A DNA stretch of 64,000 nucleotides from Escherichia phage slur16, in sequence record NC_028248.1. One strand, written 5' to 3'. Under the pieces are notes generated by a model. That model was not told where the DNA came from, ran no database searches, and saw only the letters and a list, made by a program, of their open reading frames with translations. The translations under genes were made by a program, and so were the position numbers. This document shows, piece by piece, positions 1 through 14,185 of the stretch; position 1 is the stretch's first letter, and each line of letters opens with the position of its first letter.

Positions 1-47
1 ATCCAGTGATAGTATCCACACATCGTTTGGAGAATATGGGATACACA

Positions 48-841: not shown

Positions 842-1036
842 TAAGTTCTTCTCTTTTCTTTTACCGAGTAATTCGGGTTTTCTGTTCTCTTCGGTTTGAA
901 GGGGTATGGAGATACACCTGAGTGAACAGGGTGAACAACCGAACCATTGGCTATGGCATTAGCATGGCGAAGCGGACGGGTGACGAAAGAGGGGCCGGAG
1001 GACACCAGTCACTGCCATATGATATATGGGTGATAA

Positions 1037-1596: not shown

Positions 1597-2165
1597 TCAG
1601 CCAGAAATATCTGAACAGGCCCAATTCTACCACGATTTTGACCTGACCTACAGGAGTGCTGCCAGGCGGACGAAATGGGAATACTTCTCATTCTTATAAC
1701 AATTCTCAAATATCAAGGCAGTGAGGCAAATTAATAGGCTAGGCCGTTCACACAGTGGCACAACATTTGCAACCTATCTTGTGGGGGTGAATGAGAATAC
1801 CTATCATTGTGAGAATAGTTATCATTACGGGCAATTTAACATAATACCCATTATGCGCACCACTGGCGATACATACAGGGATTGATAACATGGGTTACTG
1901 TTTACGCACATAACAATTATATTTCTTATTATTTGTGGGGGATATAGTTAGCAGCCGATAGATTAGATATTAACCTGCAGACTTCTGACCGTCCAGACGT
2001 CTAAACGCCCACACACCAAGGATTATACATACACTCCTGAATGTAAACAGGGCCGCAAAAATGCTACCATACAAGCTTGTAAATTTTTCATGCAGCACTT
2101 GACAAAGAGGAGGAAAACTTGTCTGACACTTTAGACACAATAGTGACACAATATGACATAATTGA

Positions 2166-2310
2166 CATGCATGACTGTTTACGCTCTCATTATTCACGCT
2201 ATTACTATTCACTCCCTTTACTATTCACGCTCTTACTGTTTACATGCTTAATAGTACACATGACCAATAGTTTACATAGCTAACTGTTCACGTATAGACT
2301 ATTTACACAA
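2166..2310. repeat. iteron-like tandem array (~8 copies of ~16-bp unit, consensus ACTRTTYACNC)
   Basis: Tandem units such as attattcacgc, actattcactc, actattcacgc, actgtttacatgc, agtttacatagc, actgttcacg, ctatttacac read directly. Confidence 0.5.
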
Positions 2311-2321
2311 AGATGATAAGA

Positions 2322-2577
2322 CATGCCATTCGTTTGCATGACAATAATTATACATGACAATAATCACACTGATTATAATTAGCATGACATAATATAAAAG
2401 CAGGGCAACTATTAGCAGATCTATAGTTGCCTTGCTTGTTATGTCATGATTAACTAAATACAAGGCAACTATGATCTGATTAATAGTTTGCAGACAAACC
2501 ATCACGGGGGTGATGGTTACTGCTTTTATATTATGTCGCGACTCCGTCGCGCCATGCCATTCGTTTGCATAGTTGCC
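2322..2577. repeat. 18-bp direct repeat pair bracketing three palindromes
   Basis: catgccattcgtttgcat at 2322-2339 and 2553-2570; palindromes ggcaactat/atagttgcc (2404-2431), aaccatca-cggggg-tgatggtt (2497-2518), cgcgac-tcc-gtcgcg (2536-2550). Confidence 0.5.
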
Positions 2578-3231
2578 TTATTGTTACGAATAAAACAATT
2601 GCATTGTTAATGATTTCTTATCTTTCTCTTAGTCATCTAATGATTCCAGTCAGTATAGTAATGTACAGTAAACATTAGACGACTAAAGATTTCTCTGTTT
2701 ATTATAACTCACCGTTATAATTTCGAGCTGTTTACGAAAAATGTTGACATCCTAGCCGATTTATGTTATGCAGTTTACACGAATAATTATTTTATGCAGG
2801 TATTGACTATTCCGTTATTCTATGGTTGGAATAAATACTTAGCAGGCTATAGACTGGTGAGCGTACGTAAATTCTGAGATCTGGCGGCTATAGTTATACT
2901 CGATTTTTCACGTAGAACACGCTTTTGTGGTTATGTAAGTGCATGACTTATAAAGATTTTTAGTTGTTGACAAGATATTGGAGATGTGCATCAGGTTAAA
3001 ATTTGTGCAATAGCGGCATTACGTGCAATTTTGGAAGGGAAAACGGGTAAAAATGGCCTTGCTACCACACAATGAAAAATTATGCAATAGTTATTTTCCA
3101 TGTATATTTGTACAGTGTGCGGGATTGATGGCTCGTCAATTATTCCACTTGCCAGGTAGGGCCGTTTATGGTAGGAAAAGAGAAGACAAAAAGAAAGGGG
3201 CTTTAAGCCCCTGACCGTTCATCTTGTTGTA

Positions 3232-3495
3232 TTATTTGTTGCTCATCCAGTTTTCCCAAGCTGCCTGATAATCTGCCTCACTACGGCGGATCTCTTCTTG
3301 TTCTTCAAGTCGGATCTCTTCTTCCAGGTACCCCAAGATGTCAGCCTTTTTGGTCTGGCGTAGCATCCAGTCATCTTTTTTGCGGGTAAAGATCTTATAA
3401 GCTTTCTCGCAAACCTCTTTTTTGCTACCTTTCTGGACTTCCAGAACACGATAAGCCATATATTGAACTAGTTTGAGCTGGTCAAGACGTTTCAT
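3232..3495 (-). CDS. hypothetical protein (87 aa)
   Basis: Track ORF; last gene of the minus-strand early array. Confidence 0.45.
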   Translation of the reverse strand: MKRLDQLKLVQYMAYRVLEVQKGSKKEVCEKAYKIFTRKKDDWMLRQTKKADILGYLEEEIRLEEQEEIRRSEADYQAAWENWMSNK

Positions 3496-3557
3496 GATGT
3501 TTTTCCTCTTTATGTGGTTTTTGTTTAGTGGGCCTTTTGGCCCGTGTCATTATCTTA

Positions 3558-3830
3558 TTACTTACGGCGGCAGAATTCAAGCGTTTTTAATTGATAATCT
3601 TCCTCAGCCTGGAGTACAACCGCCTCGATCATTTCGTTGGCATTGTTGAAGCCATACCCTTTAGCGAACTCATCCGCACCACCTTCGTGATCATGTTCTG
3701 CGTTCATCGCTTCCACGAAATGGAATTCAAGATTATTGAGATAAGGGCTTGATGTTCCGTCCTCTTTTTCGATGAGATCCCAAATAGCATTAAAACGTGA
3801 TTCGACTTCTTGATTAATCCAGCTTGACAT
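3558..3830 (-). CDS. hypothetical acidic protein (90 aa)
   Basis: Track ORF; preceded on minus strand by promoter, hairpin gggcacttttgcccc and AGAGAGGAAAA before ATG. Confidence 0.5.
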   Translation of the reverse strand: MSSWINQEVESRFNAIWDLIEKEDGTSSPYLNNLEFHFVEAMNAEHDHEGGADEFAKGYGFNNANEMIEAVVLQAEEDYQLKTLEFCRRK

Positions 3831-3883
3831 AATGTTTTCCTCTCTTCTGGTTGTTGTGTGGGCACTTTTGCCCCTTCAAGATA

Positions 3884-3912
3884 AATGTTACCCCACCACC
3901 TGGCAGATGTCA
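3884..3912 (-). promoter_or_regulatory. sigma70-like promoter (TTGACA-N17-TAACAT)
   Basis: Minus strand TTGACAtctgccaggtggtggggTAACAT; -35 = plus 3907-3912, -10 = plus 3884-3889. Confidence 0.4.
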
Positions 3913-3938
3913 ACGGTTTTTATAGTTCTTATATGACA

Positions 3939-3969
3939 GGCAGGCCCGGTGATTGTCTCCCCCCCCCCC
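3939..3969 (-). repeat. E-element copy C (inverted) ending in an 11-nt homopolymer tract
   Basis: Plus 3939-3961 is the exact reverse complement of 13530-13552 (23 nt); C run at 3959-3969. Confidence 0.55.
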
Positions 3970-4039
3970 GTCGCCAGGTGCCTGCCGTGTAATAAGTATA
4001 ACAAAAAACAGGACAAAAGCAAGCCCTGTTTTGTAAAGA

Positions 4040-4243
4040 TTAGATGATCTGCATATCCTCCACGATAATTTCTAATTTCCAAACAAGATGATCTAAGCTC
4101 CCTGATAAAAATGATTCCGATACATAACCGCCATCGGACACCGTAGCAAGGATCTCGCCATTTGCTTGCTCTTTGATTTGAACATCCAGGCGGTTAGCCT
4201 TTGCTTTGTTCAGGACGGCGATCAGGCGGTTAGCTGTAGTCAT
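4040..4243 (-). CDS. hypothetical protein (67 aa)
   Basis: Track ORF; followed on minus strand by hairpin acaggGCTTGCTTTTGTcctgt plus T-run. Confidence 0.45.
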   Translation of the reverse strand: MTTANRLIAVLNKAKANRLDVQIKEQANGEILATVSDGGYVSESFLSGSLDHLVWKLEIIVEDMQII

Positions 4244-4327
4244 GGTGTTTTCCTTTCAGTTGTGAGCGGCACCATTGCCGCCCTACGTGATACATCTTAC
4301 ACTATCAGATACATTGTGCAAGCTATT

Positions 4328-4519
4328 TTAGATCTCGTCACCTATATAATCAGATCTGTTCTTCTCTGTCATACGCTTAAGCAATTCCTGCATATAGCTT
4401 ATGGCTTGCAAGGTGTCTTCCTCCAGGCTTGAATCAACATAATCAGGATCATTCTCAACCTTGCTATAGTTATGATAGCGTAACGCTGCCAATACCTTTC
4501 TAACTTGTTCAACATTCAT
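4328..4519 (-). CDS. hypothetical protein (63 aa)
   Basis: Track ORF in co-directional array. Confidence 0.4.
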   Translation of the reverse strand: MNVEQVRKVLAALRYHNYSKVENDPDYVDSSLEEDTLQAISYMQELLKRMTEKNRSDYIGDEI

Positions 4520-4668
4520 TTTTATCGCTCTTTAAAACAAGGTGCCAACCGTTTCTAGTAGATCACTGACCACCAGGACAATACTGATCAGCACATATCT
4601 AACCATAAGGGGAAAGAGCGCCAGCGATCCCGCCACAATCCCCAAGGTAATGATTATCTTTTTCACGG

Positions 4669-4953
4669 TTAACGGTTAACGTAAGCTTTACCGTTCACGG
4701 TTATGGGTAGATCCTCCAGGTCTGGATCTTCCTTAAGGTCGCGAGCAAGCTCACCGCACCGGATACCCTCGAATCCGTAGTACTCTGTTGTACCGTCATT
4801 AAAAGTTTTAGCGGCAAGGCATAAGCGATAAGTAACCCCGATTTGATTGACGGCATGGATATCCGTTAGATCAACCTCTTTTGCCAGCTCTTTAGCCATT
4901 ACAGGCGCATTAAGTCCAACAACCAGGGCAACTACTGCGATCATCTTTTTCAT
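4669..4953 (-). CDS. hypothetical secreted protein (94 aa, N-terminal signal peptide)
   Basis: N-terminus MKKMIAVVALVVGLNAPVMA looks like a signal peptide. Confidence 0.5.
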   Translation of the reverse strand: MKKMIAVVALVVGLNAPVMAKELAKEVDLTDIHAVNQIGVTYRLCLAAKTFNDGTTEYYGFEGIRCGELARDLKEDPDLEDLPITVNGKAYVNR

Positions 4954-5044
4954 TGTGTCTATCCTCTTTCTGCTACGTTTAAGGCGGCGGTAACCGCCTG
5001 TTTATGATTTATTGGTTAATTTTCAGGTATCGCTATAAATTAAA

Positions 5045-5269
5045 CTATGCTGTACGCTCAACTATAACAACGGTTTGAGGGATCTCACCTTCCACCACTA
5101 TCAAGGCCTTTTTCTGCGTGATGGATATCTTTACCCGTTGCAGCGTGGCGGTGAAGTCTTTCATTTCGTCACGTGGTGTTTTAGTGCAATGCCAGATCTC
5201 AGGCTTACCTATTTGCAAGCCGCGTAAAAATTCTGTTTTACCTGTCTTATTCGTGATCATTTGATTCAC
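5045..5269 (-). CDS. hypothetical protein (74 aa)
   Basis: Track ORF. Confidence 0.4.
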   Translation of the reverse strand: MNQMITNKTGKTEFLRGLQIGKPEIWHCTKTPRDEMKDFTATLQRVKISITQKKALIVVEGEIPQTVVIVERTA

Positions 5270-5270
5270 C

Positions 5271-5375
5271 TTAACCGATACCGTGGGAAGATAGGATCAT
5301 GTTAGCCATAGTTGCAACCACTCCAACCGATAATGCCAGGCCAACTACTACAACCGTGAAAATTTTCTCTAACAT
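5271..5375 (-). CDS. small membrane peptide (34 aa; track version starts at 5474)
   Basis: Internal ATG at 5375 preceded by GAGGGT; the longer track start would overlap the upstream small ORF. Confidence 0.3.
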   Translation of the reverse strand: MLEKIFTVVVVGLALSVGVVATMANMILSSHGIG

Positions 5376-5458
5376 GATTCTACCCTCATTAATGGGCGTT
5401 GCCTTATTGCCCCGCCCTACGAAATACAGTCTATCAAGTAATAAACTATTGTCAAGAT

Positions 5459-5596
5459 TTATTTTACTTCCCAAACGGAAAATTCACTACCTGGCGGAAT
5501 CATCTTTTTAATCTTGTTTGCTGCTGCTACCAGATCCACGGCTTGTACTGTAATAATATAACCAATTGTCGAGGCTGTTGCGTTGAAAGTTTTCAT
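5459..5596 (-). CDS. small hypothetical protein (45 aa)
   Basis: Found by eye: promoter, hairpin gcgggaatacttcccgc, GAGGGT, ATG at 5596, TAA at 5459-5461. Confidence 0.3.
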   Translation of the reverse strand: MKTFNATASTIGYIITVQAVDLVAAANKIKKMIPPGSEFSVWEVK

Positions 5597-5644
5597 TAAA
5601 TTACCCTCATTAATGGCGGGAAGTATTCCCGCGCTATGTAGTAC

Positions 5645-5672
5645 ACTTTACCAGATTGTTGACTGTTGTCAA
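5645..5672 (-). promoter_or_regulatory. sigma70-like promoter (TTGACA-N16-TAAAGT)
   Basis: Minus strand TTGACAacagtcaacaatctggTAAAGT. Confidence 0.35.
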
Positions 5673-5678
5673 ACTATT

Positions 5679-5858
5679 TTAACGATAATCATCATATGCT
5701 TTATTGACCTGGCGAATATAACATTCAAAAGCTAGATCAATAGATTTATATTCACGGATATATTCACCATAGGAAACCACATACATTTCTATAGCTTCCT
5801 CATATGCGAGGAGAATAGAATCTAAGCCTACGATCTCAGTCTTTGCAATAATAGCCAT
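5679..5858 (-). CDS. small hypothetical protein (59 aa)
   Basis: Found by eye, just under track cutoff: ATG at 5858 (MAIIAKTEIVGL...), TAA at 5679-5681. Confidence 0.35.
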   Translation of the reverse strand: MAIIAKTEIVGLDSILLAYEEAIEMYVVSYGEYIREYKSIDLAFECYIRQVNKAYDDYR

Positions 5859-5935
5859 GATTTTTATCCTCTTTGTGGTTGGTGGGGCTTGTTGCCCCCC
5901 CTTTGATTTATATATTACAGTCTTATATGGTCATG

Positions 5936-6169
5936 TCAACTATTTTCAAAAAATTTTTCTGCTGTGATATTTTTCCCGGTCGGATTTGCTACTTTCAAAA
6001 TTCTATCATGAACCGGACGCCCGAAAGAATAAGATCCGTATACAGTAAACCAATAATCGCCGTCAGGTTGTACTATTACCGCCGCATATGGTACGCCTTT
6101 TTCGTTTTTGCTGACAAAATAGATCACATTGCCATTAATAGCCTCAGCGCGTTTAATTTGTTCCATCAT
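5936..6169 (-). CDS. hypothetical protein (77 aa)
   Basis: Track ORF; hairpin ggggccttttcggcccc upstream. Confidence 0.45.
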   Translation of the reverse strand: MMEQIKRAEAINGNVIYFVSKNEKGVPYAAVIVQPDGDYWFTVYGSYSFGRPVHDRILKVANPTGKNITAEKFFENS

Positions 6170-6223
6170 GATGATTTACCTCTCTTTATTTTCATAATTG
6201 GGGCCTTTTCGGCCCCGCCAGGT

Positions 6224-6508
6224 TTATTTATTGATAGCGTGCAGCGGGAAAGGTACTCCAGGTTGATAGATAACTTTTACAACCTCATCAGGGCAAAAGA
6301 AATTGCAGAATTCACCCTGATAAGCCTCATCCTCTTTCAATTCTTCATCAACATACTCAAAAAAGTAGTCGATGCTTGGATAATCCTGGCCGGGATTATA
6401 GTCTACCATCGTTAATAACAATTCTTGATCATTCCGTAGGATATGCATACCCGCTTTTAAGTATTTTGCTTCCATTTCCACTACATCGCCAACGGTGATA
6501 ATAGCCAT
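6224..6508 (-). CDS. hypothetical acidic protein (94 aa)
   Basis: Track ORF. Confidence 0.45.
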   Translation of the reverse strand: MAIITVGDVVEMEAKYLKAGMHILRNDQELLLTMVDYNPGQDYPSIDYFFEYVDEELKEDEAYQGEFCNFFCPDEVVKVIYQPGVPFPLHAINK

Positions 6509-6709
6509 GATTTTAACTCCTATCTATCCGGTTAATGATTGGGGGCCGCCCCCCTGACACGTCCTATTATCCATATTGTAGGACTTGATGCAAGTACTTC
6601 TTTAAAAATTTTTTAAGCGCCTTGGGGCCGCTGTAACGCTAAAATAATAAAGGCCATGCAACCGCATAGCCTTTATGTGATTATATCGCTGCAGGCCCTG
6701 CCTGGGGCC

Positions 6710-7060
6710 TTATTTTGCATTCTTGCCTGTATTGCCGCCACGGTACCAGCGTTTGCGGTGAAAATGGTAATAATCACCCTCGGCATTAAACATCAGATGA
6801 TTTTCAATAACCAGCTTACGAAGGTGGGCCGGATCTTGTTCCATTCTTGCCAGATTCCGGCGGCTGTTACGTAAACGTATAAATTCCATATTCAGGCCGT
6901 TGATTGCAGCATGGATGTCAAAGTAACCCCCTTTGAGACGTTCACGCATGGCGTTAAGCTCAACACAATATGCAGATTTCTCACAAATCAAGGTATTAGC
7001 TAGGGCGCGGACCTGGGCAAGGGGGTTAAGCTCATTAAGGTAGTATAGTTTGACTTTCAT
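6710..7060 (-). CDS. hypothetical protein (116 aa)
   Basis: Track ORF. Confidence 0.45.
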   Translation of the reverse strand: MKVKLYYLNELNPLAQVRALANTLICEKSAYCVELNAMRERLKGGYFDIHAAINGLNMEFIRLRNSRRNLARMEQDPAHLRKLVIENHLMFNAEGDYYHFHRKRWYRGGNTGKNAK

Positions 7061-7077
7061 AAAATCACCTGCTGAAA

Positions 7078-7386
7078 TTAGTTTGAGAAAACATCGTTCA
7101 CAATAGCGATCACAATGCCGCCCACCTTGTCACGGTCAACAATGCACAAATCGCCATGGATCATGCGGTAGTCTGGATGATCTTTCACAGAATAGTCAAT
7201 AAGTGTTTTCTTGTCGTCCAGCTTCGTAACTTCCATTCTCATAACGATATGAGAATCATCAAAGGCATTATTCCGAAAAGTCATAGCCTGACCGCCAGGG
7301 CACCCGGTGATCTCCACTTCCACACCGTCTACGATCTGACCATCAAAGAAATAAAGATTATTAGCCTGGATAAACATGTCTATCAC
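7078..7386 (-). CDS. hypothetical protein (102 aa)
   Basis: Track ORF; 45-bp hairpin element lies ~40 nt upstream of its start. Confidence 0.45.
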   Translation of the reverse strand: MIDMFIQANNLYFFDGQIVDGVEVEITGCPGGQAMTFRNNAFDDSHIVMRMEVTKLDDKKTLIDYSVKDHPDYRMIHGDLCIVDRDKVGGIVIAIVNDVFSN

Positions 7387-7425
7387 TCCTTGTTAACTGC
7401 GTGGTATTTTTAACAGGGTTTAAAT

Positions 7426-7470
7426 TTACTTTATTGATGGCCCTGGAGTCAAGGCCATCTAAAAATAAAT
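7426..7470 (-). repeat. 45-bp intergenic hairpin element, copy 1
   Basis: tttactttattGATGGCCctggagtcaaGGCCATCtaaaaataaa; 7-bp stem GATGGCC/GGCCATC; starts 2 nt after the upstream gene stop. Confidence 0.55.
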
Positions 7471-7471
7471 T

Positions 7472-7672
7472 TTACAGGCCTACAATCTCTTTGATTCGTT
7501 TAACCGCTGCCTCAGCGCCTTGGGGGTAAAAATTATGGTAACCAATCACGCGAGTGATACTAATCGCCGTTTGATGATCTTCATAGTCGCCCTTGAAGAT
7601 TTCTTGACCGTCAATCAGCACGGCAATTTTTTCTTCTTTTTTGAAGTTAATAACGCGGATATTGTTGCTCAT
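7472..7672 (-). CDS. hypothetical protein (66 aa)
   Basis: Track ORF. Confidence 0.45.
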   Translation of the reverse strand: MSNNIRVINFKKEEKIAVLIDGQEIFKGDYEDHQTAISITRVIGYHNFYPQGAEAAVKRIKEIVGL

Positions 7673-7812
7673 TTTGTTTCTCCTTTCTGGTTTTTGTGGT
7701 GGTGGGGATTAGCTCCCCGTTGATTGTTATTATCCACATTCCGGACCGGATTGCAACACCCCGGAAGAATTTTTTTTTTAAAAGATAGGCCCCCATGATC
7801 GGGGGGCCGTTC

Positions 7813-7932
7813 TTAGTTACTTACAGCGATAAAGTACATCCCTACCCCTAACAATATTTCAAGGGCGATGATCTCAAGCCATACCATAACACGGCGCGCC
7901 TTATCGGTGCGGGGCTTATCCTTGGGTGTCAT
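7813..7932 (-). CDS. small membrane peptide (39 aa)
   Basis: Found by eye: ATG at 7932 (MTPKDKPRTDKARRVMVWLEIIALEILLGVGMYFIAVSN), TAA at 7813-7815. Confidence 0.25.
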   Translation of the reverse strand: MTPKDKPRTDKARRVMVWLEIIALEILLGVGMYFIAVSN

Positions 7933-7952
7933 CGTCTCCCCCTTTCCCCCTG

Positions 7953-8174
7953 TTAGTAGTGACGTGGTTTACAATGGCCCCCAGGAGTACCATCACTACG
8001 CACACCACAAGAAAAATTATCTCTGTCGTTGTTCGATCCATTGTTATAAAATTCCTCAAGATCAGGCTTGAAAATAAAGCGTTCGTTATTGAATCCATCA
8101 CGCCAGGCGGCTGGCTTCAAATCTTCACTAAAGGGATTAATTAACGTGGCATTATTTAAACGGTTGGCCCACAT
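7953..8174 (-). CDS. hypothetical protein (73 aa; track start 8192)
   Basis: GAGAGGAA 8 nt upstream of the ATG at 8174. Confidence 0.35.
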   Translation of the reverse strand: MWANRLNNATLINPFSEDLKPAAWRDGFNNERFIFKPDLEEFYNNGSNNDRDNFSCGVRSDGTPGGHCKPRHY

Positions 8175-8556
8175 ATTTTCTATTCCTCTCAAATAGGCGA
8201 TCCGCCTCAGTTAAACATATCTCATGGGCTTGATCTCTGGTTTTAGCCTCATCGAAAACTTGTTGTGCCAGGCTGCAGCGTAGGGAGACTGGAAGATCAC
8301 TATAATAGGCGTTGACAAACGTTTGAGCGTCGTACAGGTCTGAAAATACTTTACCCTTTCTATTATTCCCCTTGTCAACAATTGCAAGGATAACAAGCAC
8401 AATAGTTGCAACCACCCCCAGGAAAATAGATATAATAAACCATAAAAAGGCGGATCTACCCATCTTGCCAGCGATCCAGGCGTTGAACAAGGCAACTACT
8501 ACAGCCAAAATAATAAATTCCATTCTATGTACCTCTTTTGCAGTTCTGTTTAACAA
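8152..8556 (-). CDS. hypothetical membrane protein (134 aa)
   Basis: Two hydrophobic segments near the N-terminus. Confidence 0.45.
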   Translation of the reverse strand: MLNRTAKEVHRMEFIILAVVVALFNAWIAGKMGRSAFLWFIISIFLGVVATIVLVILAIVDKGNNRKGKVFSDLYDAQTFVNAYYSDLPVSLRCSLAQQVFDEAKTRDQAHEICLTEADRLFERNRKYVGQPFK

Positions 8557-8587
8557 TAAGGCGGCAAATATGCCGCCTGTTACCTGA

Positions 8588-8968
8588 TTAAAAATTATCG
8601 CCGTAAATCTTTCCGCTTTCTGCCCACACCACCACGCGGGGCATGTTATCCCATACGTCTTGTTTTAGATTGAGCGCGTGCAATTCTTCGGTGGTGCCCA
8701 TACCGGGCACGGGCTGATTGTATACTGCAAAACGACCACCCGCATAGTCATAGGCCAGGGTTAAATCACACTGGATCATCTTTTTGATCATGGCGTTGAG
8801 CATAGCGTTAGCCGCATACTGGTCACGTTTTAGGGGCAACTCTTTGATTAGTTTGCGATAGTTTTCAATGTGATCGCACACTGTTTCACGTGGAAGATCT
8901 TTCATATCTTCACGGAATGTAACCAGGTTAAACATAACGGTGTCAATAGCCTTGGTAGTGTTTTTCAT
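8588..8968 (-). CDS. hypothetical protein (126 aa)
   Basis: Track ORF. Confidence 0.45.
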   Translation of the reverse strand: MKNTTKAIDTVMFNLVTFREDMKDLPRETVCDHIENYRKLIKELPLKRDQYAANAMLNAMIKKMIQCDLTLAYDYAGGRFAVYNQPVPGMGTTEELHALNLKQDVWDNMPRVVVWAESGKIYGDNF

Positions 8969-9057
8969 AATGTTTTCCTCTTTGTTTTGTGTGGGGCAAA
9001 CGTCTTGCCCCCTTGAGTTTTAATATAGCAGGTTTTTAGGTTATTGCAACACTTTAT

Positions 9058-9681
9058 TTATGAAAAAGTCATCTCGCCATATTCATCCACATCAAACCGC
9101 CAATCATTGGCCTCAATAAGGCCGATCAGGTTTTCGGTAGTAAACTGTTCAAGATAGGCCTCCTCCAGGTCTACGTAAACCTTGCGGGATAGCTCCCGTA
9201 CCGTCTCGGTGATCAGCTCTTCCAGGTCTTCCACTTTGTTTTCTTGTTTGGCGGTCAGATCTAGCCAGGTGGTATCAATGTATCCGCTTACAGTGTTTTC
9301 GTGACTATAGCGGCTATATGGATCACGCTCAACACTGGCTGATAACTCGCCATCGTGCATTGTGCCGAACAAGTGACGAATTGATCGGAACTTGGTCAGG
9401 GCCTTTACTTTACGCAAAAATTTTTCTAAATCCACGTTTTCAGCACTGATTGACGCGCCGTCACCCTGGCACCAAAAGCCTGACCAATGTACTTCGGTAT
9501 CTTCAAGGCCATACTCTGGAAAAACATATTCTTTATAGTATTCAATTACACTTTCTGCAAAAAAGTTATCCCCGCTGTGTTCTTCTCTTTCGCGGACCAT
9601 TTCAACGGCTTTTTCTTTTTGTTCGTCGGTCAGCACGTCGAAAGATAAATTGTAACCTGCGGTAATGTTAACGGTGGTCAT
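9058..9681 (-). CDS. hypothetical acidic protein (207 aa)
   Basis: Strongly Asp/Glu-rich; promoter, hairpin ggcgggaaaaattcccgcc and GGAGA upstream. Confidence 0.5.
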   Translation of the reverse strand: MTTVNITAGYNLSFDVLTDEQKEKAVEMVREREEHSGDNFFAESVIEYYKEYVFPEYGLEDTEVHWSGFWCQGDGASISAENVDLEKFLRKVKALTKFRSIRHLFGTMHDGELSASVERDPYSRYSHENTVSGYIDTTWLDLTAKQENKVEDLEELITETVRELSRKVYVDLEEAYLEQFTTENLIGLIEANDWRFDVDEYGEMTFS

Positions 9682-9738
9682 GATATTTTCTCCTATTTTC
9701 TTTGTTAGTGGCGGGAATTTTTCCCGCCTGTGTGTTTA

Positions 9739-9766
9739 AGTATACTTATTGAGGCTTACTTGTCAA
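9739..9766 (-). promoter_or_regulatory. sigma70-like promoter (TTGACA-N16-TATACT)
   Basis: Minus strand TTGACAagtaagcctcaataagTATACT. Confidence 0.4.
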
Positions 9767-10016
9767 CACTATTTTTTAAATTATTGTGGCGTAAAATGTT
9801 TAGAATCTCTTCAACGTCATCAACACGGCGGCAATTTTTAAACGCTACCAATTGCCCCCGGATCTTAATCACTGGGCGGCCTTGCCAGTGCCCCTGGAGA
9901 AAGCGCGCTTTAACTTTATCGGTGGAACTATCACGCCACCAAACGGCCTTATTATTGCAGTAGTAAAAATTATTCAGGACAACATCGACTTTATCAAAAT
10001 TTTTTAATTTACGCAT
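9756..10016 (-). CDS. hypothetical protein (86 aa)
   Basis: Track ORF; GAAAGGAG before ATG. Confidence 0.4.
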   Translation of the reverse strand: MRKLKNFDKVDVVLNNFYYCNNKAVWWRDSSTDKVKARFLQGHWQGRPVIKIRGQLVAFKNCRRVDDVEEILNILRHNNLKNSVDK

Positions 10017-10051
10017 GGCGTTTACTCCTTTCTTCTTGCTTTGATGTGGTT

Positions 10052-10080
10052 AGTATATCCAGGCGATTCCAAGGTGTCAA
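10052..10080 (-). promoter_or_regulatory. sigma70-like promoter (TTGACA-N17-TATACT)
   Basis: Minus strand TTGACAccttggaatcgcctggaTATACT. Confidence 0.4.
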
Positions 10081-10250
10081 GCTTTAAATAAAAGATATTT
10101 TTAACACCATAAAACGGTCCTGGGTGATGTTTTCAGGCTAAGAAAGGGGATTGCATAGGTAGGGGCTTTTGTGGCGTTTGTGGGGCCAACCAGGGGCGCT
10201 ATTCGTAGGATAGAAATAAAAAGCCCCGCACAATGGCGGGGCGTTGGTTG

Positions 10251-10472
10251 TTATTTGCCTTTGTGGCGGTATCGTTCCGCCTGTCGTTCACGTTCCAAAA
10301 GCAGGCCCGGTAATTTGCGATCATAGTGATTCCTCCAGATCTTCCCGAACCTTTTCGGTTTATTCAGTTTATTGTTACGCTGGCGGCGTTCCGGCAGCTC
10401 TTCGGAATCGTGGGGGCGCTTTACAATTTTTTCGAAATTAATTTTCATAAATTTCCCCTTTACTAATTTCAA
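10251..10472 (-). CDS. hypothetical basic protein (73 aa)
   Basis: Track ORF, Lys/Arg-rich; overlaps upstream gene 3-prime end. Confidence 0.3.
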   Translation of the reverse strand: MKLVKGKFMKINFEKIVKRPHDSEELPERRQRNNKLNKPKRFGKIWRNHYDRKLPGLLLERERQAERYRHKGK

Positions 10473-10791
10473 TATTTGCCTGAATCGCCCGGATACGACG
10501 TTTTATGACCTCCTGATCCTTGCAATCATATCCCCAAAAGTCTACGATCTTTGCGCCTCCGGCCTTTAGGCGGTATAGTGTTTCCTGCATCTTGTAAGCT
10601 GGGATCGGTCGCGGTGTTACCTGGTCGCCTCTCTCATCTTTGTACTTGATTATGTAGTCTTCGTTGTCGTTGAATACCCAAAATGGGTATTCTGTGAGCG
10701 CGTTGCTATCTTTTTCGTTTTTAGATTGGATCTTGTTTACAATTAAAGCCGTAGCAATAGCGCCAATAATAAAACTAGCCCCGCTGATCAT
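10438..10791 (-). CDS. hypothetical membrane-anchored protein (117 aa; track start 10854)
   Basis: AAGGAG 6 nt upstream of the ATG at 10791; N-terminal hydrophobic helix. Confidence 0.4.
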   Translation of the reverse strand: MISGASFIIGAIATALIVNKIQSKNEKDSNALTEYPFWVFNDNEDYIIKYKDERGDQVTPRPIPAYKMQETLYRLKAGGAKIVDFWGYDCKDQEVIKRRIRAIQANIEISKGEIYEN

Positions 10792-10819
10792 GTACTTTCT
10801 CCTTTCATGGTGTTGATAA

Positions 10820-10865
10820 ATTATCTTTATAGATGGCCCTGCAGCCAGGACCACCGAAAAAATAA
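10820..10865 (-). repeat. degenerate copy of the 45-bp intergenic element
   Basis: ttatctttatagatggccctgcagccaggaccaccgaaaaaataa shares the ctttatagatggccctg half; palindrome not preserved. Confidence 0.35.
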
Positions 10866-11111
10866 CTATTTCACAATGCCTACAAAACAGATCCCGCCTT
10901 CACCTATATAAGCAATATCGGTCACTTTATAACTTGTCAAGATCTGCTTATTTAGTTCATTAATAAAATCGGTCATTGCGTTGGTGTAGTTGTCTTCCGT
11001 GTCTAAGGCATAATCCCAGGTGTACACCTTTTTACGTCCGAAGCCTTTTACCATGATACGGGCGCTTTTGGTGTTGGTAGGGGCATAATATTTGGTGATT
11101 AGTGCTGCCAT
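10866..11111 (-). CDS. hypothetical protein (81 aa)
   Basis: Track ORF; AGGAG before ATG. Confidence 0.45.
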   Translation of the reverse strand: MAALITKYYAPTNTKSARIMVKGFGRKKVYTWDYALDTEDNYTNAMTDFINELNKQILTSYKVTDIAYIGEGGICFVGIVK

Positions 11112-11154
11112 GGTTTTAACTCCTATGCATTAGTTCAGTGTTAACAGTATAAAG

Positions 11155-11198
11155 TTTACTTTATAGATGGCCCTGGTGTCAAGGCCATCTAAAAATAA
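11155..11198 (-). repeat. 45-bp intergenic hairpin element, copy 2
   Basis: tttactttataGATGGCCctggtgtcaaGGCCATCtaaaaataa. Confidence 0.55.
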
Positions 11199-11200
11199 GC

Positions 11201-11542
11201 TTACTCGTTTTCTTCCAGCTCCGCAAGCTCTTCTTTTGCTTCTTCTAACTCTGTCTGTAATTCCTGGTATTCTTCATCGTCCTCAATATCCAGGCTGTCG
11301 ATGTAGTCGCTAAATCCGCAGCGGTAAGCGATAGGATCTAGCTCCTTGAGGATACGCGACGGAAGAAAAGAAATGTTTCCGATCATAATTTCGCCGTAGA
11401 TCTCGTCTAACCATTCATCATAGTTTTCGTCGTACTTGTCCTCGTCGATTTCAAAGTTATCGATCTTATTCTCAAGGTCTGCGATCTGTTTTTTCAGTTC
11501 AGCGATCTGCATAGCTTTTTCTGAGGCGGTCATAGTAGTCAT
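11201..11542 (-). CDS. hypothetical acidic coiled-coil protein (113 aa)
   Basis: Heptad-like N-terminus, very acidic C-terminus (…EEAKEELAELEENE); near-consensus promoter upstream. Confidence 0.5.
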   Translation of the reverse strand: MTTMTASEKAMQIAELKKQIADLENKIDNFEIDEDKYDENYDEWLDEIYGEIMIGNISFLPSRILKELDPIAYRCGFSDYIDSLDIEDDEEYQELQTELEEAKEELAELEENE

Positions 11543-11593
11543 GGTGTTTTTCTCCTTTTGTGTGTTCTGGGAAGTTTTCCCGTTTATGTGCTT

Positions 11594-11621
11594 ATTATAT
11601 CGATTTAAGTTAGCTTGTCAA
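11594..11621 (-). promoter_or_regulatory. sigma70 promoter, near consensus (TTGACA-N16-TATAAT)
   Basis: Minus strand TTGACAagctaacttaaatcgaTATAAT, then hairpin gggaaaacttccc and GGAGA. Confidence 0.5.
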
Positions 11622-11741
11622 TTAAAAGTTTAAGAAAAATTTTGCGACACCGTTGGCGCTACCCATCAACATTTGCGCCAGGATGTACCCAATGATGCAA
11701 ACGATGATGGTTACCTTTGTGTGCTGGCGTGTAGTGCTCAT
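11622..11741 (-). CDS. small membrane peptide (39 aa)
   Basis: Found by eye: GGAGG then ATG at 11741 (MSTTRQHTKVTIIVCIIGYILAQMLMGSANGVAKFFLNF). Confidence 0.3.
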   Translation of the reverse strand: MSTTRQHTKVTIIVCIIGYILAQMLMGSANGVAKFFLNF

Positions 11742-11775
11742 CTTTAAGCCTCCTTTTCCGCTCAACTGTGGTTAG

Positions 11776-11820
11776 TTTACTTTATTGATGGCCCTGGTGT
11801 CAAGGCCATCTAAAAATAAA
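11776..11820 (-). repeat. 45-bp intergenic hairpin element, copy 3
   Basis: tttactttattGATGGCCctggtgtcaaGGCCATCtaaaaataaa; ends 2 nt before the upstream gene stop. Confidence 0.55.
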
Positions 11821-11821
11821 C

Positions 11822-12217
11822 TCAATAAGTTTTTAGTACTTTCCCGTCCAATCTGTCAAGCTGGATCTCAATAGCTGCAGAAAATCTATTGTAAACCACA
11901 TCGCCCAGGGAGTCCAGCCAATCTATGACGTTATACACCTGCTCTTTATTCTTGCAAGTCCGGATCCGTTTCATTACGTAAGACGGATCAATATTAGCGC
12001 TCTCGTTGTTGTGGTCCTGCGCCTGGCCTGCTGCGCTAGTTATAGATTTTACAACCACCTGAAAGGGCTTTAAGGTGCCTTTTGCGTTCATCTCACGCGC
12101 TTTTGCGGCGCGGTTGTTATATGTTACACAACGGCGGCAAATGTTGACCAAATGCATATCAATAATTTTTTCATCGTTTGCCAGTTCGTTCATGATGCGG
12201 CGTACGTTCTTATTCAT
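11822..12217 (-). CDS. hypothetical protein (131 aa)
   Basis: Track ORF; promoter, hairpin ggcgggaaacatcccgcc and AGAGGAAA upstream. Confidence 0.5.
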   Translation of the reverse strand: MNKNVRRIMNELANDEKIIDMHLVNICRRCVTYNNRAAKAREMNAKGTLKPFQVVVKSITSAAGQAQDHNNESANIDPSYVMKRIRTCKNKEQVYNVIDWLDSLGDVVYNRFSAAIEIQLDRLDGKVLKTY

Positions 12218-12262
12218 AGCTTTTCCTCTGTGTTGGCGGGATGTTTCCCGCCTTTTGTGCCT

Positions 12263-12290
12263 AGTTTACTTGAATTTTGCAGCGTGTCAA
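12263..12290 (-). promoter_or_regulatory. sigma70-like promoter (TTGACA-N16-TAAACT) with A-tract upstream
   Basis: Minus strand aaaaaaaaaaaaattaTTGACAcgctgcaaaattcaagTAAACT. Confidence 0.45.
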
Positions 12291-12304
12291 TAATTTTTTT
12301 TTTT

Positions 12305-12703
12305 TTATTCGTGGGCGCATGTTACAATGTGCTTTTTATAGCCCAAGTGGTTAGCAAGTGCCGCCAAAAACTCTTCTTCATAGATCCAGCCGTCGGCAGT
12401 GATTCCCATGGCACTTAATGCGCTTTCAAGTGCAGCGTTGGCTTTATCATAACCGTGACCGCTCGCCTTGCCGCCAGTATAACCGTACTTATTGTTCTTG
12501 TTGTCGTGAATCCAAAATACACAGTAATGAGTGTTACCGCTGGCGGCGGCATAATACCGGATCTCAGCTACTTCGTGCAAATTATTGTCATCGTCCAGGC
12601 CCACCAGATTATAGGCCTTGTAGAATCCGCGATCACGGCGGCAGCTTTTAACATCAGAAAAAGAGAAGTCAGCATTATTAAAATTAAAGGTTGTGGTTTT
12701 CAT
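12305..12703 (-). CDS. hypothetical protein (132 aa)
   Basis: Track ORF; AAGAGGA before ATG. Confidence 0.5.
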   Translation of the reverse strand: MKTTTFNFNNADFSFSDVKSCRRDRGFYKAYNLVGLDDDNNLHEVAEIRYYAAASGNTHYCVFWIHDNKNNKYGYTGGKASGHGYDKANAALESALSAMGITADGWIYEEEFLAALANHLGYKKHIVTCAHE

Positions 12704-12735
12704 GATTTTATCCTCTTAGTGTCTTTTGTGCTTTC

Positions 12736-12764
12736 AGTATATTTTGTTTCAGACTGTATGTCAA
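12736..12764 (-). promoter_or_regulatory. sigma70-like promoter (TTGACA-N17-TATACT)
   Basis: Minus strand TTGACAtacagtctgaaacaaaaTATACT. Confidence 0.4.
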
Positions 12765-12767
12765 TAC

Positions 12768-12965
12768 TTATTTTTTATTAAACCAGTGGTTGATCTGACC
12801 TTTTGTCAGGGCGCAACGATTAAGCTGTTGCAGGGTATAGCTATGACCGCGACGAAATTTATAAAGGCCTTGCCCGTTGTTGATGGTTACATCCACCCGG
12901 CAAATCACTTGATTGGTGACCACCTGGCGAGTGTTGCGACGTGCTTTGATTCCGTATGCGTTCAT
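12768..12965 (-). CDS. hypothetical basic protein (65 aa)
   Basis: Track ORF; AGAGAGGATAA before ATG. Confidence 0.35.
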   Translation of the reverse strand: MNAYGIKARRNTRQVVTNQVICRVDVTINNGQGLYKFRRGHSYTLQQLNRCALTKGQINHWFNKK

Positions 12966-13259
12966 GATTTCTTATCCTCTCTGTTAATTAGTGTGGTGTT
13001 GTTCACCTTGCGAGAATAAGAATAACAAGAACTGTCCGAGCTGTCAACCACTATGCAAAATTATTTTTGGGCAAAATTCTCCAGCCGCCGCCCCTGCCAG
13101 GTTAACCACCGTTTTCGTACTCTTCTTTATGTTCCGGTGCTTCCGTTTTAGCCTTCTCGACCAGGGCGATAGCTTCCGTATCATCAATTACTATTTTCCA
13201 GGTGAGTAGCATTACCTTTCATTTTTGTACCTCTTCTGTAGCTGTTCACTTTATAGCGC

Positions 13260-13560
13260 GGACCTGCCAGGTTGGCCCCGCCAGGTCCCGACAGTGGGCG
13301 CACCTGGTTATAATTTTTTTTTTGAAAGGTGTTGACAGCGGCCCCGCCAGGTGGCACAATATACCTATCGAAAGGACGGCAGGCACCGGTGACGGGGGAG
13401 ACAACCACCGGAGATGGGCGCTGCGTAAAATGAGAACGGTTATCATTATCATTTAAAAATTTATGCAAAAAATCCTTGCTTTCTTTGTCCTGTGTGATAC
13501 TATAATAACAAGCCGGGGCAACAGGGGCCGGGAGACAATCACCGGGCCTGCCCGTTATTC
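13260..13560 (+). promoter_or_regulatory. promoter-like cluster with ccaggt boxes and two direct E-element copies
   Basis: ggccccgccaggt exact at 13274-13286 and 13340-13352; TTATAAT at 13308-13314; TTGACA at 13333-13338; TATAAT at 13501-13506; E cores at 13394-13411 and 13530-13552. Confidence 0.4.
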
Positions 13561-13699
13561 TGCAAACGAGAATGATTATCATTCAAAATTCTAAATGAGA
13601 ACTCCTCGCATTTAATAAATTTAATTAGCATGCTAATTACCCTCCGTAACAATTTCCTATAAAACAGTATCCCATAAAATATTCCCATATAGAAATTTT

Positions 13700-13890
13700 A
13701 AAAATCCATTTCTGAAAACGAAAAATCGATTTCGTCCCCAAAAATTTCAGGTCGAGATCCGGAACGATTTCCAGAAAATCCGATTTAGAAAACGAAAAAC
13801 AGATCGAGTACTGAGAAATTTATCGAGAAAAATTTTCAGAAAATCCAAGCCATGAAATGAAAAGTAGATCGAGTACTGGAAAAATTGTAC
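13700..13890. repeat. degenerate tandem repeats (~3 copies, period ~65 bp)
   Basis: agaaaatccgatttagaaaacgaaaaacagatcgagtactgagaaa vs agaaaatccaagccatgaaatgaaaagtagatcgagtactggaaaa; aaaatcc box also at ~14045 and ~14132; inverted repeat atcaggag/ctcctgat at 14124-14158. Confidence 0.5.
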
Positions 13891-14185
13891 CGCAACCCAC
13901 TGATAGTGATGGGTTTTCCGTCATAAATCACTAAGAGTGAGTGGAGAAAGGTATGGTGGAGAGGTGTGTATGTGTGGGAAATCTGTAATGGTGGCCTGAA
14001 ATATGGTGCAAACGGCTAGATAGATTGGCACAATTTTCCGCGCCTGTGTTGAAAAAATCCATTTCAGTTTTCGATCCATTTTCTGATTTTCTAAGAATTT
14101 TAAAATATCTATGTGTTCAAAATATCAGGAGAAAATCCATTTTAGAAATTCTCCTGATTTCTGGCAACTTGGCAATTTAAAAATA

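Follow-up and report, generated by a model that had tools for sequence, protein, structure and literature searches.

Organisation of the locus

By its sequence, the DNA analysed here (64,000 nucleotides, hereafter the window) is that of an rV5-like E. coli phage of the genus Vequintavirus, and it shows ~100% identity to slur12. The core locus is a gene-free stretch of ~1 kb (13.24-14.19 kb); a 'non-coding' box is marked in the rV5 paper as well. Two plus-strand promoters, PA and PB, are embedded here in a block of minus-strand genes, and each is followed by a G-rich leader, the E element. These promoter-E units (13.33-13.56 kb), which are oriented opposite to the flanking genes and drive no genes, read into Fur-box-like palindromes and then into AT-rich iterons, while a third, inverted unit lies at 3.9 kb. 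The repeated motifs are most likely components of one conserved cis-acting control module, with the following elements (window coordinates):

3885-3913, minus strand: second promoter, TTGACA-17-TAACAT, directly behind E-C; drives early genes 3830-3232; GCCAGGT in the spacer at 3898-3904
3935-3990, minus strand: E-C, inverted third copy of E, core at 3946-3959
3995-4022, minus strand: promoter PC, TTGCTT-16-TATACT, PB homologue; -35 in the loop of a terminator-like hairpin (4032-4005)
6211-6223, plus strand: exact 13-mer; on the minus (gene-sense) strand, one arm of the hairpin GGGGCC-GAAAA-GGCCCC behind a TAA stop
13090-13102, plus strand: 13-mer variant GCCCCTGCCAGGT, directly after a TAA stop codon on the minus strand
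13260-13272, plus strand: GCCAGGT box, variant GGACCTGCCAGGT, upstream of PA
13274-13286, plus strand: exact 13-mer GGCCCCGCCAGGT, a GCCAGGT box unchanged in 8 relatives and ~118 nt ahead of the E-A core
13302-13307, minus strand: inverted CCAGGT box (ACCTGG on the plus strand)
13332-13360, plus strand: promoter PA, TTGACA-17-CACAAT, opposing the flanking minus-strand genes
13340-13352, plus strand: exact 13-mer in the PA spacer
13376-13425, plus strand: E-A, G-rich leader, core GAGACAACCACCGG at 13398-13411
13426-13456, plus strand: Fur-box-like array A, GAGAACGGTTATCATTATC, matching the E. coli Fur consensus at 16/19 positions, overlapping matches in 6-nt register
13476-13506, plus strand: promoter PB, TTGCTT-19-TATAAT
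13511-13556, plus strand: E-B, G-rich leader, core GAGACAATCACCGG at 13532-13545, part of the block most conserved across genera
13562-13613, plus strand: Fur-box-like palindrome B, GAGAATGATTATCATTC, unchanged in all aligned genera; a weaker copy, AAATGAGAACTCCTCGCATTT, accompanies it
13622-13639, no strand: perfect 18-bp palindrome TAATTAGCATGCTAATTA, between the Fur-like boxes and the iterons
13677-14160, plus strand: AT-rich iteron region, GC 0.29-0.36

The 19-nt spacer of PB is suboptimal for sigma70. In the iteron region, three units (13683-13886) are spaced by 74 and 65 nt, the core TCGAGTAC occurs at 13804 and 13869, and repeats of the type AGAAAATCCnnTTnAGAAA are present in addition.

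The E element

As originally noted, the 23-mer GGGAGACAATCACCGGGCCTGCC at 13530-13552 has an exact inverted copy at 3939-3961, a match that a repeat finder stretched to 35 nt at 89%, and a third variant, GGGGGAGACAACCACCGG, is present at 13394-13411. A sigma70-like promoter (TTGACA-17-TAACAT, 3913-3885, minus strand) directly follows the inverted copy. The invariant core of E is GAGACAAnCACCGG. In more than 10 lineages, every E core follows a sigma70 -10 hexamer at a distance of 16-36 nt, in the orientation of that promoter; because this arrangement is always kept, we conclude that E is a transcribed G-rich leader and not an upstream operator. The former view of E as a dispersed binding motif is not supported: E is not palindromic and lies downstream of the -10; nor is it spread upstream of one temporal gene class, as it occurs at only two loci.

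The E leaders have a GC content of 0.60 and a positive GC skew in 31 of 33 cases, and runs of three or more G number ~2 per 43 nt, compared with 0.67 in other leaders. The E-C core is preceded by a run of 10 G (11 C on the plus strand, 3959-3969), which in relatives is replaced by 5 G or an interrupted G-tract. The promoter-plus-E unit is most likely portable, with the inverted copy at 3.9 kb being a second such unit placed before an early operon. Units also precede ordinary genes or operons both at 3.9 kb in the window and in the unrelated phage contig L214, where three more were found within 1.6 kb, each followed by a T5-T6 run and one standing alone, converging on a neighbouring gene.

GCCAGGT boxes and the 13-mer

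The 13-mer GGCCCCGCCAGGT occurs exactly at 6211, 13274 and 13340, and the claim that such a number exceeds chance was confirmed: allowing up to 2 mismatches, 6 copies were counted versus 0.60 expected, a number reached in 0 of 100 shuffles. Its 7-mer GCCAGGT occurs 15 times in the window against 6.3 expected (~2.4-fold), with 12 of the 15 copies between 3.1 and 13.4 kb, i.e. in the early region. In a composite of the whole slur12-like genome (137 kb), the 13-mer family and the E core have zero additional copies beyond window positions 3.9-14.4 kb. Both promoter-like sites said to carry a box in their spacer exist and contain GCCAGGT, each shifted by one base from the position first given.

The proposal that these motifs are regulator binding sites thus stands in part. 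It lacks support for E, and it is retained for the conserved cluster of GCCAGGT/13-mer boxes just upstream of and within PA, which recurs in the Pseudomonas phage PAK_P3; clustering around PA and its PAK_P3 homologue fits sequence-specific protein binding. Some copies are explained otherwise: the one at 6211 is an intergenic hairpin arm (conserved in Gotham and L183), three lie inside coding sequence (5489, 5707 and 12922), and the 3.9-kb spacer box lacks conservation, reading GCCATGG in both Gotham and L183 and GCCAGGA in L156.

Conservation in related phages

In 8 other Vequintavirus genomes, the 13-mers at 13274 and 13340 and the units E-A and E-B are nearly invariant and more conserved than adjacent coding DNA; the whole of 13331-13630 shows almost no variation among 9 Vequintavirus genomes, in contrast to the variable coding DNA next to it. 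Phapecoctavirus, Mydovirus, Certrevirus and Seunavirus share a gap of 0.7-1.2 kb without gene-sense (minus-strand) genes, with the E block in the same place. In two records, a single small ORF is annotated within this gap, on the opposite strand. The positions of both PB hexamers are conserved in the five aligned rV5-like genera (Vequintavirus and these four) and in Erwinia phage Hena1, and promoter hexamers hold position while spacers diverge.

The order GCCAGGT boxes, promoter, E and iterons is common to Klebsiella, Salmonella and Cronobacter relatives and to PAK_P3, while the Erwinia relative retains just the promoter, E and a Fur-like box. In Nankokuvirus, the module comprises three GCCAGGT boxes, the promoter TTGACA-cGCCAGGT...-CATTCT, GAGACAAACACCGCCCCTGCGCG (23 nt identical to ESCO5) and then three iterons, GTGAAAATCTGTCGAGTACC; as in the enterobacterial phages, it is antisense to the flanking genes. 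The 3 kb around the homologous promoter of PAK_P3 hold 9 GCCAGGT versus 0.69 expected (13-fold). The iteron core TCGAG(T/A)AC is present in 2-3 copies downstream of E in slur12, Bas54, L146, BIS47, SSE121 and PAK_P3; it is absent from ESCO5 and Hena1, and GCCAGGT is absent near E in ESCO5.

Transposon insertion data

Published transposon data for phage Bas54 (MaxBurger) cover the locus as pseudo-ORFs. Insertions hit 5 of the 15 TA sites of bas54_0102 (window 13304-13582), called 'strong fitness defect', 0 of 11 in bas54_0101 (13637-13741), called 'Essential', and 1 of 3 in bas54_0100. The fully insertion-free segment, 13637-13741, lies downstream of E where the iterons start, and the iteron region overlaps the 0/11 and 1/3 segments. 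Since the flanking bas54_0099 and bas54_0104 are non-essential and bas54_0103 is 'Intermediate' (12/14 TA sites hit), polarity is excluded as the cause of this intolerance, which is compatible with either a cis-acting site or an essential RNA. Insertions are also absent from another non-coding region, at window ~700-3200, which contains the terminal repeat.

A candidate replication origin

Our preferred reading, held tentatively and as somewhat short of probable, is that 13.24-14.19 kb is an iteron-type replication origin that is activated or primed by transcription. Host sigma70 RNA polymerase would initiate at PA and PB, in the direction opposite to the early genes around them, and transcribe the G-cluster-rich leader with its GAGACAAnCACCGG core toward the iterons with their TCGAGTAC core. 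This transcription would open or prime the origin, for instance through an RNA-DNA hybrid displacing the G-rich strand with the E core. A phage or host protein controlling PA would bind the GCCAGGT boxes (extended form GGCCCCGCCAGGT) that lie within this promoter and upstream of it, and the Fur-box-like palindromes behind each E may be further protein sites. An origin is favoured by the promoter-E position, the antisense orientation, the positional conservation, the Pseudomonas module, the iteron core, the insertion intolerance, the sequence constraint, the composition and the box enrichment. Against it, the region at ~700-3200 could be the origin instead, and origin function alone leaves unexplained both the invariance of the 13-14-nt core and the units before ordinary genes. 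In addition, the locus has neither DnaA-box or GATC enrichment nor a turn in global GC skew, the predicted E promoter of PAK_P3 has no start site in the ONT-cappable-seq list (a ~50-nt RNA could escape detection), and the ESCO5 and Hena1 gaps and the PB spacer count on the same side.

The main rival, possible though distinctly doubtful, is that the promoter-E units are genes for short (~50-90 nt) non-coding RNAs whose largely unpaired invariant core binds a conserved RNA or protein target of host or phage; 13.3-13.6 kb would then be essential through this transcript, with no bearing on origin function. Self-contained, portable units (three in the window, in both orientations), the L214 units with their T5-T6 runs, the T-run right behind E in PAK_P3 and L234 and a core invariant across hosts are consistent with it, as is the insertion intolerance. 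Nevertheless, RNAalifold gave 0 pairs and detected no conserved hairpin at E, the folding z-score averaged only -0.83, the E units have no Rfam match, and the phage genome holds no target complementary to the core. No terminator was called at any E, a U-tract is absent from both copy A and copy C, the PAK_P3 start site is missing, and the segment with 0/11 TA sites hit lies downstream of E. GC-rich terminator or insulator hairpins with remnants of local duplication, devoid of a sequence-specific role, are a very improbable explanation of the motifs: the 6211 hairpin arm behind a stop codon, the similar hairpins that commonly embed promoters in the early region, the termination of PAK_P3 gene-sense transcripts within the homologous region and the folding of the plus strand across E-C (z = -4.4) agree with it, but the lack of conserved pairing and of U-tracts at A and C, the essential region and a 13-14-nt core that stays constant between highly divergent phages whose sequences on either side of it differ all oppose it.

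It is unlikely that the E core and GCCAGGT are both DNA operators by which a phage or host regulator switches early promoters off or on, with E as a roadblock at ~+20 to +40. The tight linkage of both motifs to sigma70 promoters, the GCCAGGT enrichment in PAK_P3 and in the early region of the window, and a core invariant in sequence without structure suit protein recognition; however, the non-palindromic E stands at only three promoters among dozens in the early region, no CCAGGT box lies within 260 nt upstream of the core in the unknown-phage contigs L154, L169, L214, L220 and L234, the 3.9-kb spacer box is unconserved, and several boxes fall in coding DNA or hairpin arms. Moreover, regulating dispensable early genes would not render the region essential. 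Quite unlikely, too, is a promoter-proximal RNA or DNA element acting in cis on host RNA polymerase (in the manner of HK022 put antitermination RNAs or of an ops-type loading site) and making transcription processive. The fixed position and single orientation, the units ahead of operons and a conservation from E. coli to Pseudomonas phages that would suit a highly conserved partner, for instance RNA polymerase, favour it, whereas E has no put-like two-stem structure and no boxA or boxB, T-runs immediately follow E in L214 and PAK_P3, and PA and PB drive no genes.

Comparison with known systems

At the T7 primary origin, promoters phi1.1A and phi1.1B are followed by an AT-rich segment; T4 oriF and oriG combine a promoter with a downstream unwinding element and an R-loop primer, and RNA II of ColE1 exemplifies a transcription-primed plasmid origin. 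The candidate origin resembles these in having one or two promoters that direct transcription into AT-rich DNA, a non-template strand that is G-rich just downstream of the start, non-coding transcription units and more than one unit per genome. It differs in its host sigma70-type promoters, the iteron array that follows and the 13-14-nt invariant core of the leader. With lambda ori, P4 ori/crr and RSF1010 oriV (inverted ssiA/ssiB) it shares direct repeats, helical-phase spacings and adjoining AT-rich DNA; the more distant accessory boxes, repeated in either orientation, recall P4 ori and crr, and the intolerance of insertions is a further point of similarity. Unlike these, its units are long (74 and 65 nt spacing in enterobacterial phages, ~31 nt in PAK_P3), DnaA boxes are missing and an inverted E copy lies 9.5 kb off, in an operon leader.

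Similar to lambda OOP RNA, a short product of host polymerase beside ori, the E unit has its own promoter, is antisense to the flanking genes and adjoins a probable origin; the clear terminator and antisense target (cII) of OOP have no counterpart at E in the window. E shares with HK022 put and lambda nut a promoter-proximal position, one orientation and a place in early transcription units, but not boxA, the boxB hairpin or the two-stem put fold. At 13426-13456 and 13562-13586, candidate Fur-like sites overlap in 6-nt register; the matches to the E. coli consensus GATAATGATAATCATTATC are 15/19 and 16/19, with 16/19 for array A; the aerobactin iucA operator contains GAGAAT hexamers. Unlike Fur boxes, they lie in transcribed DNA downstream of promoters and not over them, and the Pseudomonas homologue carries other repeats in their place. 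A tandem putative Fur-like pair was also found at 1793 and 1811 (14/19 and 13/19).

Repeated motifs in the window and in the complete genome

The window is rV5-like (Vequintavirus) and shows an identity of about 100% to slur12. When positions 1-4874 were compared with the ends of the slur12 record, 127 bases differed at the record junction, and two indels were counted in 13 kb; the window is a near-identical genome to slur12 or a different permutation, rather than the slur12 record itself. The minus strand carries all genes from 3.2 kb to beyond 16 kb. The 459-bp terminal repeat of phage Gotham maps near positions 1270-1730, which places the motif loci in the left-end early region.

The original prediction described a dispersed family of motifs, and the sequence check confirmed its copies: the sequence at 13530-13552 recurs at 3939-3961 as an exact reverse complement, a variant is present at 13394-13411, and a 13-mer, which extends the box GCCAGGT, is exact at 6211, 13274 and 13340, with six copies against 0.6 expected when up to two mismatches are allowed. 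The promoter-like sites at 3.9 and 13.3 kb both hold the box in their spacer, as proposed. GCCAGGT itself occurs 15 times in the window against 6.3 expected, 12 of these copies lying between 3.1 and 13.4 kb, and when a composite of the complete genome (137 kb) was searched, the 13-mer and the core of the second motif, the E-element, were confined to 3.9-14.4 kb. In nine Vequintavirus genomes, positions 13331-13630 are almost invariant, next to variable coding DNA.

The proposal that these motifs are binding sites for a regulator is plausible for GCCAGGT, but was not supported for the E-element, which reads as a transcribed leader. Some copies of the box are better explained otherwise: the 13-mer at 6211 is the arm of a hairpin after a stop codon, some of the 7-mers sit within coding sequence, and the spacer box at 3.9 kb is not conserved in relatives. 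A Dcm/EcoRII site (CCWGG) was rejected as the cause of the box, the conserved unit being the 7-mer GCCAGGT, equally enriched in the Pseudomonas Nankokuvirus PAK_P3, where a 3-kb locus holds nine copies against 0.69 expected. P. aeruginosa is not known to have Dcm.

Organization of the gene-free locus

No credible gene was found between 13190 and 14185. On the plus strand, the region shows the following order of features, to which the 3.9-kb copy is added.

Features of the 13.2-14.2-kb locus in plus-strand order, and of the E copy at 3.9 kb
13260, 13274 and, inverted, 13302: cluster of CCAGGT boxes
13332-13360, plus strand: PA, predicted sigma70 promoter, score 10/12, 17-nt spacer with the 13-mer within it
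13376-13425, plus strand: E-A
13432: Fur-box-like array, best match 16/19
TTGCTT at 13476, TATAAT at 13501, plus strand: PB, predicted sigma70 promoter, TTGCTT-19-TATAAT
13511-13556, plus strand: E-B
13568: Fur-like palindrome GAGAATGATTATCATTC, 15/19, plus a weaker copy
Next in order: perfect palindrome of 18 bp
Last in order: AT-rich DNA of about 500 bp (GC content 0.29-0.36), holding shorter repeats as well as three repeat units at spacings of 74 and 65 nt
4022-3995, minus strand: PC, predicted sigma70 promoter, TTGCTT-16-TATACT
3935-3990, minus strand: E-C

A 132-aa ORF of slur12 (13184-13582, minus strand) was rejected as a protein-coding gene: its frame is broken in relatives by indels of 1, 4 and 20-49 nt, and its translation is not protein-like. 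Among the frame-breaking indels is the T-run at 13311-13321, which has four additional T in Bas54 (phage MaxBurger) and one base fewer in a further compared locus, L201. A Pfam search with this ORF gave no match, and its single PHROG match has no assigned function and was presumably built from similar ORF calls. Small-ORF calls in the region disagree from record to record, and neither the slur12 ORF nor the differing small ORFs called elsewhere are likely to be real. For the genes adjoining E, searches of Pfam and PHROGs yielded no function.

The Fur-like sites at 13432 and 13568 comprise overlapping matches to the 19-bp consensus spaced 6 nt apart, and they are Fur-box-like by consensus match and hexamer phasing. 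At a threshold of at least 13/19, the window holds 42 matches to the Fur consensus, compared to 17 in shuffles.

The E-element as a predicted promoter-proximal leader

All three E copies, read as GAGACAAnCACCGG, lie just downstream of a predicted same-strand promoter of sigma70 type (for which -35 and -10 hexamers 16-18 nt apart are expected; PB has 19 nt), and the hexamer positions of promoters of the PA, PB and PC type are conserved across genera. Judged from position and sequence, E is probably a transcribed leader, because its core follows the -10 box by 23-36 nt, which puts it 16-29 nt past the presumed start of transcription, and because the PAK_P3 copy has 23 consecutive bases in common with that of ESCO5, of which the search pattern fixed only 15. 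The conserved part is a linear core of 13-14 nt within a context rich in G clusters; E leaders have a GC content of 0.60, with positive skew in 31 of 33, compared to a GC content of 0.41 for other leaders of the window.

Several known classes of element were considered and rejected. A conserved hairpin or terminator is disfavoured by weak fold z-scores (mean -0.83 sense and -0.55 antisense), and RNAalifold returned no consensus pairs on 33 E sequences. Rfam searches of the window and four distant loci, at gathering and E-value thresholds, gave nothing relevant, and no intrinsic terminator was called at any E of the window (fold z-scores -2.4, -0.9 and -1.8). T-runs follow E only in PAK_P3 and in two compared contigs, L214 and L234. 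A relationship to lambda nut or HK022 put was discarded, as conserved pairing and a boxA-like sequence are both absent, and a coding role was discarded on the basis of frames that differ between ESCO5 and SSE121 and of a slur12 copy devoid of a start codon.

Within the E-C leader, a run of 11 C at 3959-3969 (10 G directly before GAGACAA) is reduced to five G in Gotham and interrupted in the compared loci L156 and L183; the length of this tract is slippage-variable or a sequencing artefact.

Occurrence in other phages

Through BLAST and pattern scans, the promoter-E arrangement was also found in ESCO5 (Phapecoctavirus), BIS47 (Mydovirus), CR3 (Certrevirus), SSE121 (Seunavirus) and Erwinia phage Hena1, in the Pseudomonas Nankokuvirus Ab03, KPP10 and PAK_P3, and in several IMG/VR contigs, L214 among them with three copies. 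Scans of viral contigs with GAGAATGATTNTCATT and GAGACAANCACCGNNNNTGC gave at least 120 matches each, mostly chance, and homologues were chosen by context. In genome contigs, the E core showed scattered, chance-like matches in unrelated taxa, with no host counterpart.

Phapecoctavirus, Mydovirus, Certrevirus and Seunavirus have, at the same place, a gap of 0.7-1.2 kb free of gene-sense (minus-strand) genes, in which one small opposite-strand ORF is annotated in two records; conservation within the gap is strongest over the block that begins at PB, includes E and ends with the Fur-like box. Most groups have one GCCAGGT box 103-124 nt ahead of an E core, and downstream of E the iteron core TCGAG(T/A)AC is present in 2-3 copies in six lineages (slur12, Bas54, the compared locus L146, BIS47, SSE121 and PAK_P3). 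The homologous intergenic region of PAK_P3 spans about 500 bp, again antisense to its neighbours, and reads GCCAGGT, about 30 nt, GCCAGGT, about 35 nt, TTGACA-cGCCAGGTccgtcctgg-CATTCT, E, a T-run and three iterons GTGAAAATCTGTCGAGTACC.

In L214, three promoter-E units lie within 1.6 kb (1700-3420) in both orientations. After the two that precede genes come a T-run and a palindrome of the AATGTAA...TTACATT type overlapping a second promoter; in the stand-alone third, the T-run leads up to a hairpin terminator. In four loci of the distant genera (L003:2345-2480, L004:2310-2420, L005:2320-2430 and L006:2330-2440), a second sigma70 promoter drives a GC-rich, highly conserved module some 110 nt long (ACAGAAGAGGAAACGCCACCCCACGGCG...GGGGCCAGGTCGGAAGGTGGATCGCCGGTAG), which looks like a structured RNA and gave no match in Rfam.

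Published transposon and transcript data

The rV5 genome paper shows a "non-coding" box, and an origin could not be defined there (PMC3606486). For Bas54, transposon data come from the HIDEN-SEQ study (bioRxiv 10.1101/2025.11.20.689424); coordinates on the compared Bas54 locus (L252) convert to window positions by adding 12655. In that study, bas54_0102 (window 13304-13582, comprising PA, E-A, PB and E-B) was hit at 5 of 15 TA sites with very low read counts and scored as "strong fitness defect", bas54_0101 (13637-13741) was hit at none of 11 sites and scored as "Essential", and bas54_0100 (13747-13893) was hit at one of three. Among the neighbours, bas54_0099 and 0104 were scored as non-essential, and 0103, where insertions hit 12 of 14 TA sites, as "Intermediate"; the bas54_0100-0102 locus is not discussed in that study (bioRxiv 10.1101/2025.11.20.689424). 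With flanking genes that the phage can lose at little or no cost on either side, polarity cannot account for this result. We conclude that the requirement is for the non-coding DNA itself or for its transcript, and action in cis and in trans both fit.

Published ONT-cappable-seq data on PAK_P3 show that gene-sense transcription stops either at E or within the iterons (T022), and resumes at P035. The predicted E promoter has no listed start site in these data, by which a 50-nt RNA could be missed; sRNA1 and sRNA2 map at 85-86 kb, away from the E locus. T022, a terminator mapped in the gene sense, falls within the three TCGAGTAC iterons of the compared locus L254:1640-1745 (PAK_P3 50570-50675), and no read reaches the next promoter.

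A possible replication origin

In sequence terms, the locus is organized like an iteron origin with inward-pointing putative promoters. Three direct repeat units, 74 and 65 nt apart, occupy 13683-13886, and repeats of 17-19 nt are also present; the GC content over 13561-14185 is 0.29-0.36 against 0.42-0.45 in the flanks; and PA and PB point on the plus strand into this DNA, where they serve no gene, all flanking genes being on the minus strand. The best explanation, which we advance tentatively, is that the 13.2-14.2-kb region may act as a transcription-activated or transcription-primed iteron-type replication origin. An RNA-DNA hybrid or the 3' end of a primer would then lie at the origin, and the G-rich E leaders would fit such a role. 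The nearest analogues would be the primary origin of T7, oriF and oriG of T4, ColE1, and lambda ori with OOP. No match to the DnaA box TTATCCACA was found in 13190-14185 at up to one mismatch, and neither GATC density nor a turn in GC skew gave a signal at the locus. Further weak points of the origin reading are a second non-coding region devoid of insertions, at the terminus, and the invariance of the E core, for which it does not account.

Promoter-E units also precede ordinary genes, in the window at 3.9 kb and in L214 at its copies E2 and E3. The 3.9-kb copy is directly followed by a second promoter, and the same layout, with T-runs in addition, recurs at E2 and E3. For this reason, two other readings stay viable: that the promoter-E units are small RNAs, which we regard as somewhat unlikely, and that E is a leader modifying RNA polymerase, which appears quite improbable.

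As an origin, the region would be a new form of a known type, and the promoter-E unit itself could be new. A wider proposal, which we judge unlikely, takes the unit (sigma70 promoter, G clusters and invariant GAGACAAnCACCGG) as an undescribed portable cis element of unrelated lytic phages of Enterobacteria, Pseudomonas and unknown hosts, which would directly recruit a conserved machine, be it a phage primase-helicase or the RNA polymerase of the host, to the G-rich strand once displaced and, with the GCCAGGT and TCGAGTAC boxes, would form a new origin architecture in rV5-like phages, Stephanstirmvirinae and Nankokuvirus. On the template strand the E core reads 5'-TTGTC, which may represent a T7-type primase site. 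Literature searches covering the Vequintavirinae origin, transcript maps and phage Fur boxes retrieved no description of these motifs, nor of an origin for these phages.

Phages of the rV5-like and PAK_P3-like groups are widely used therapy candidates, with no known origin or cis-regulatory element. Our analysis singles out some 900 bp in which motifs of three classes are conserved, a segment that accounts for the small "hypothetical genes" bas54_0100-0102 scoring as essential or strongly deleterious in the transposon screen. A mapped origin would aid phage engineering, in terms of safe insertion sites and infection-dependent replicons, and the promoter-E unit may represent a new kind of promoter-proximal element.

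Terminal region and additional repeats

Adjoining the terminal repeat, 2.5 kb of the window (700-3200) are gene-free and correspond to the Bas54 0134/0135 intergenic region, in which transposon insertions are absent. Many tandem repeats occur here (2134-2167, 2191-2237, 2238-2277 and 2337-2393), with 'cctgaagag' present three times and 'ccctgccccgccgg' twice. The same region includes, at 1792-1826, a tandem pair of Fur-box-like units (TGAGAATACCTATCATTG and TGAGAATAGTTATCATTA) with a spacing of 18 nt, of the type that follows E-A and E-B.

The perfect palindrome AATGAGAATGATTCTCATT is frequent in unrelated viral contigs (IMG/VR contigs L007-L126), often as two or three tandem copies in non-coding DNA; its free position is mostly C, which completes a perfect dyad. 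Over the regions compared, CP057073.1 (E. coli, 137.6 kb, from a plasmid collection) and the 'Campylobacter phage' records MG065659.1, MG065674.1 and MG065658.1 show 87-93% identity to this rV5-like sequence, which suggests that these records are mislabelled or represent carry-over. Finally, four 49-nt repeats (7423-7471, 10819-10867, 11153-11201 and 11774-11822) carry on the minus strand a TTGAC(A/T) -35 element in the loop of a hairpin GATGGCC...GGCCATC, so that promoter and hairpin overlap.
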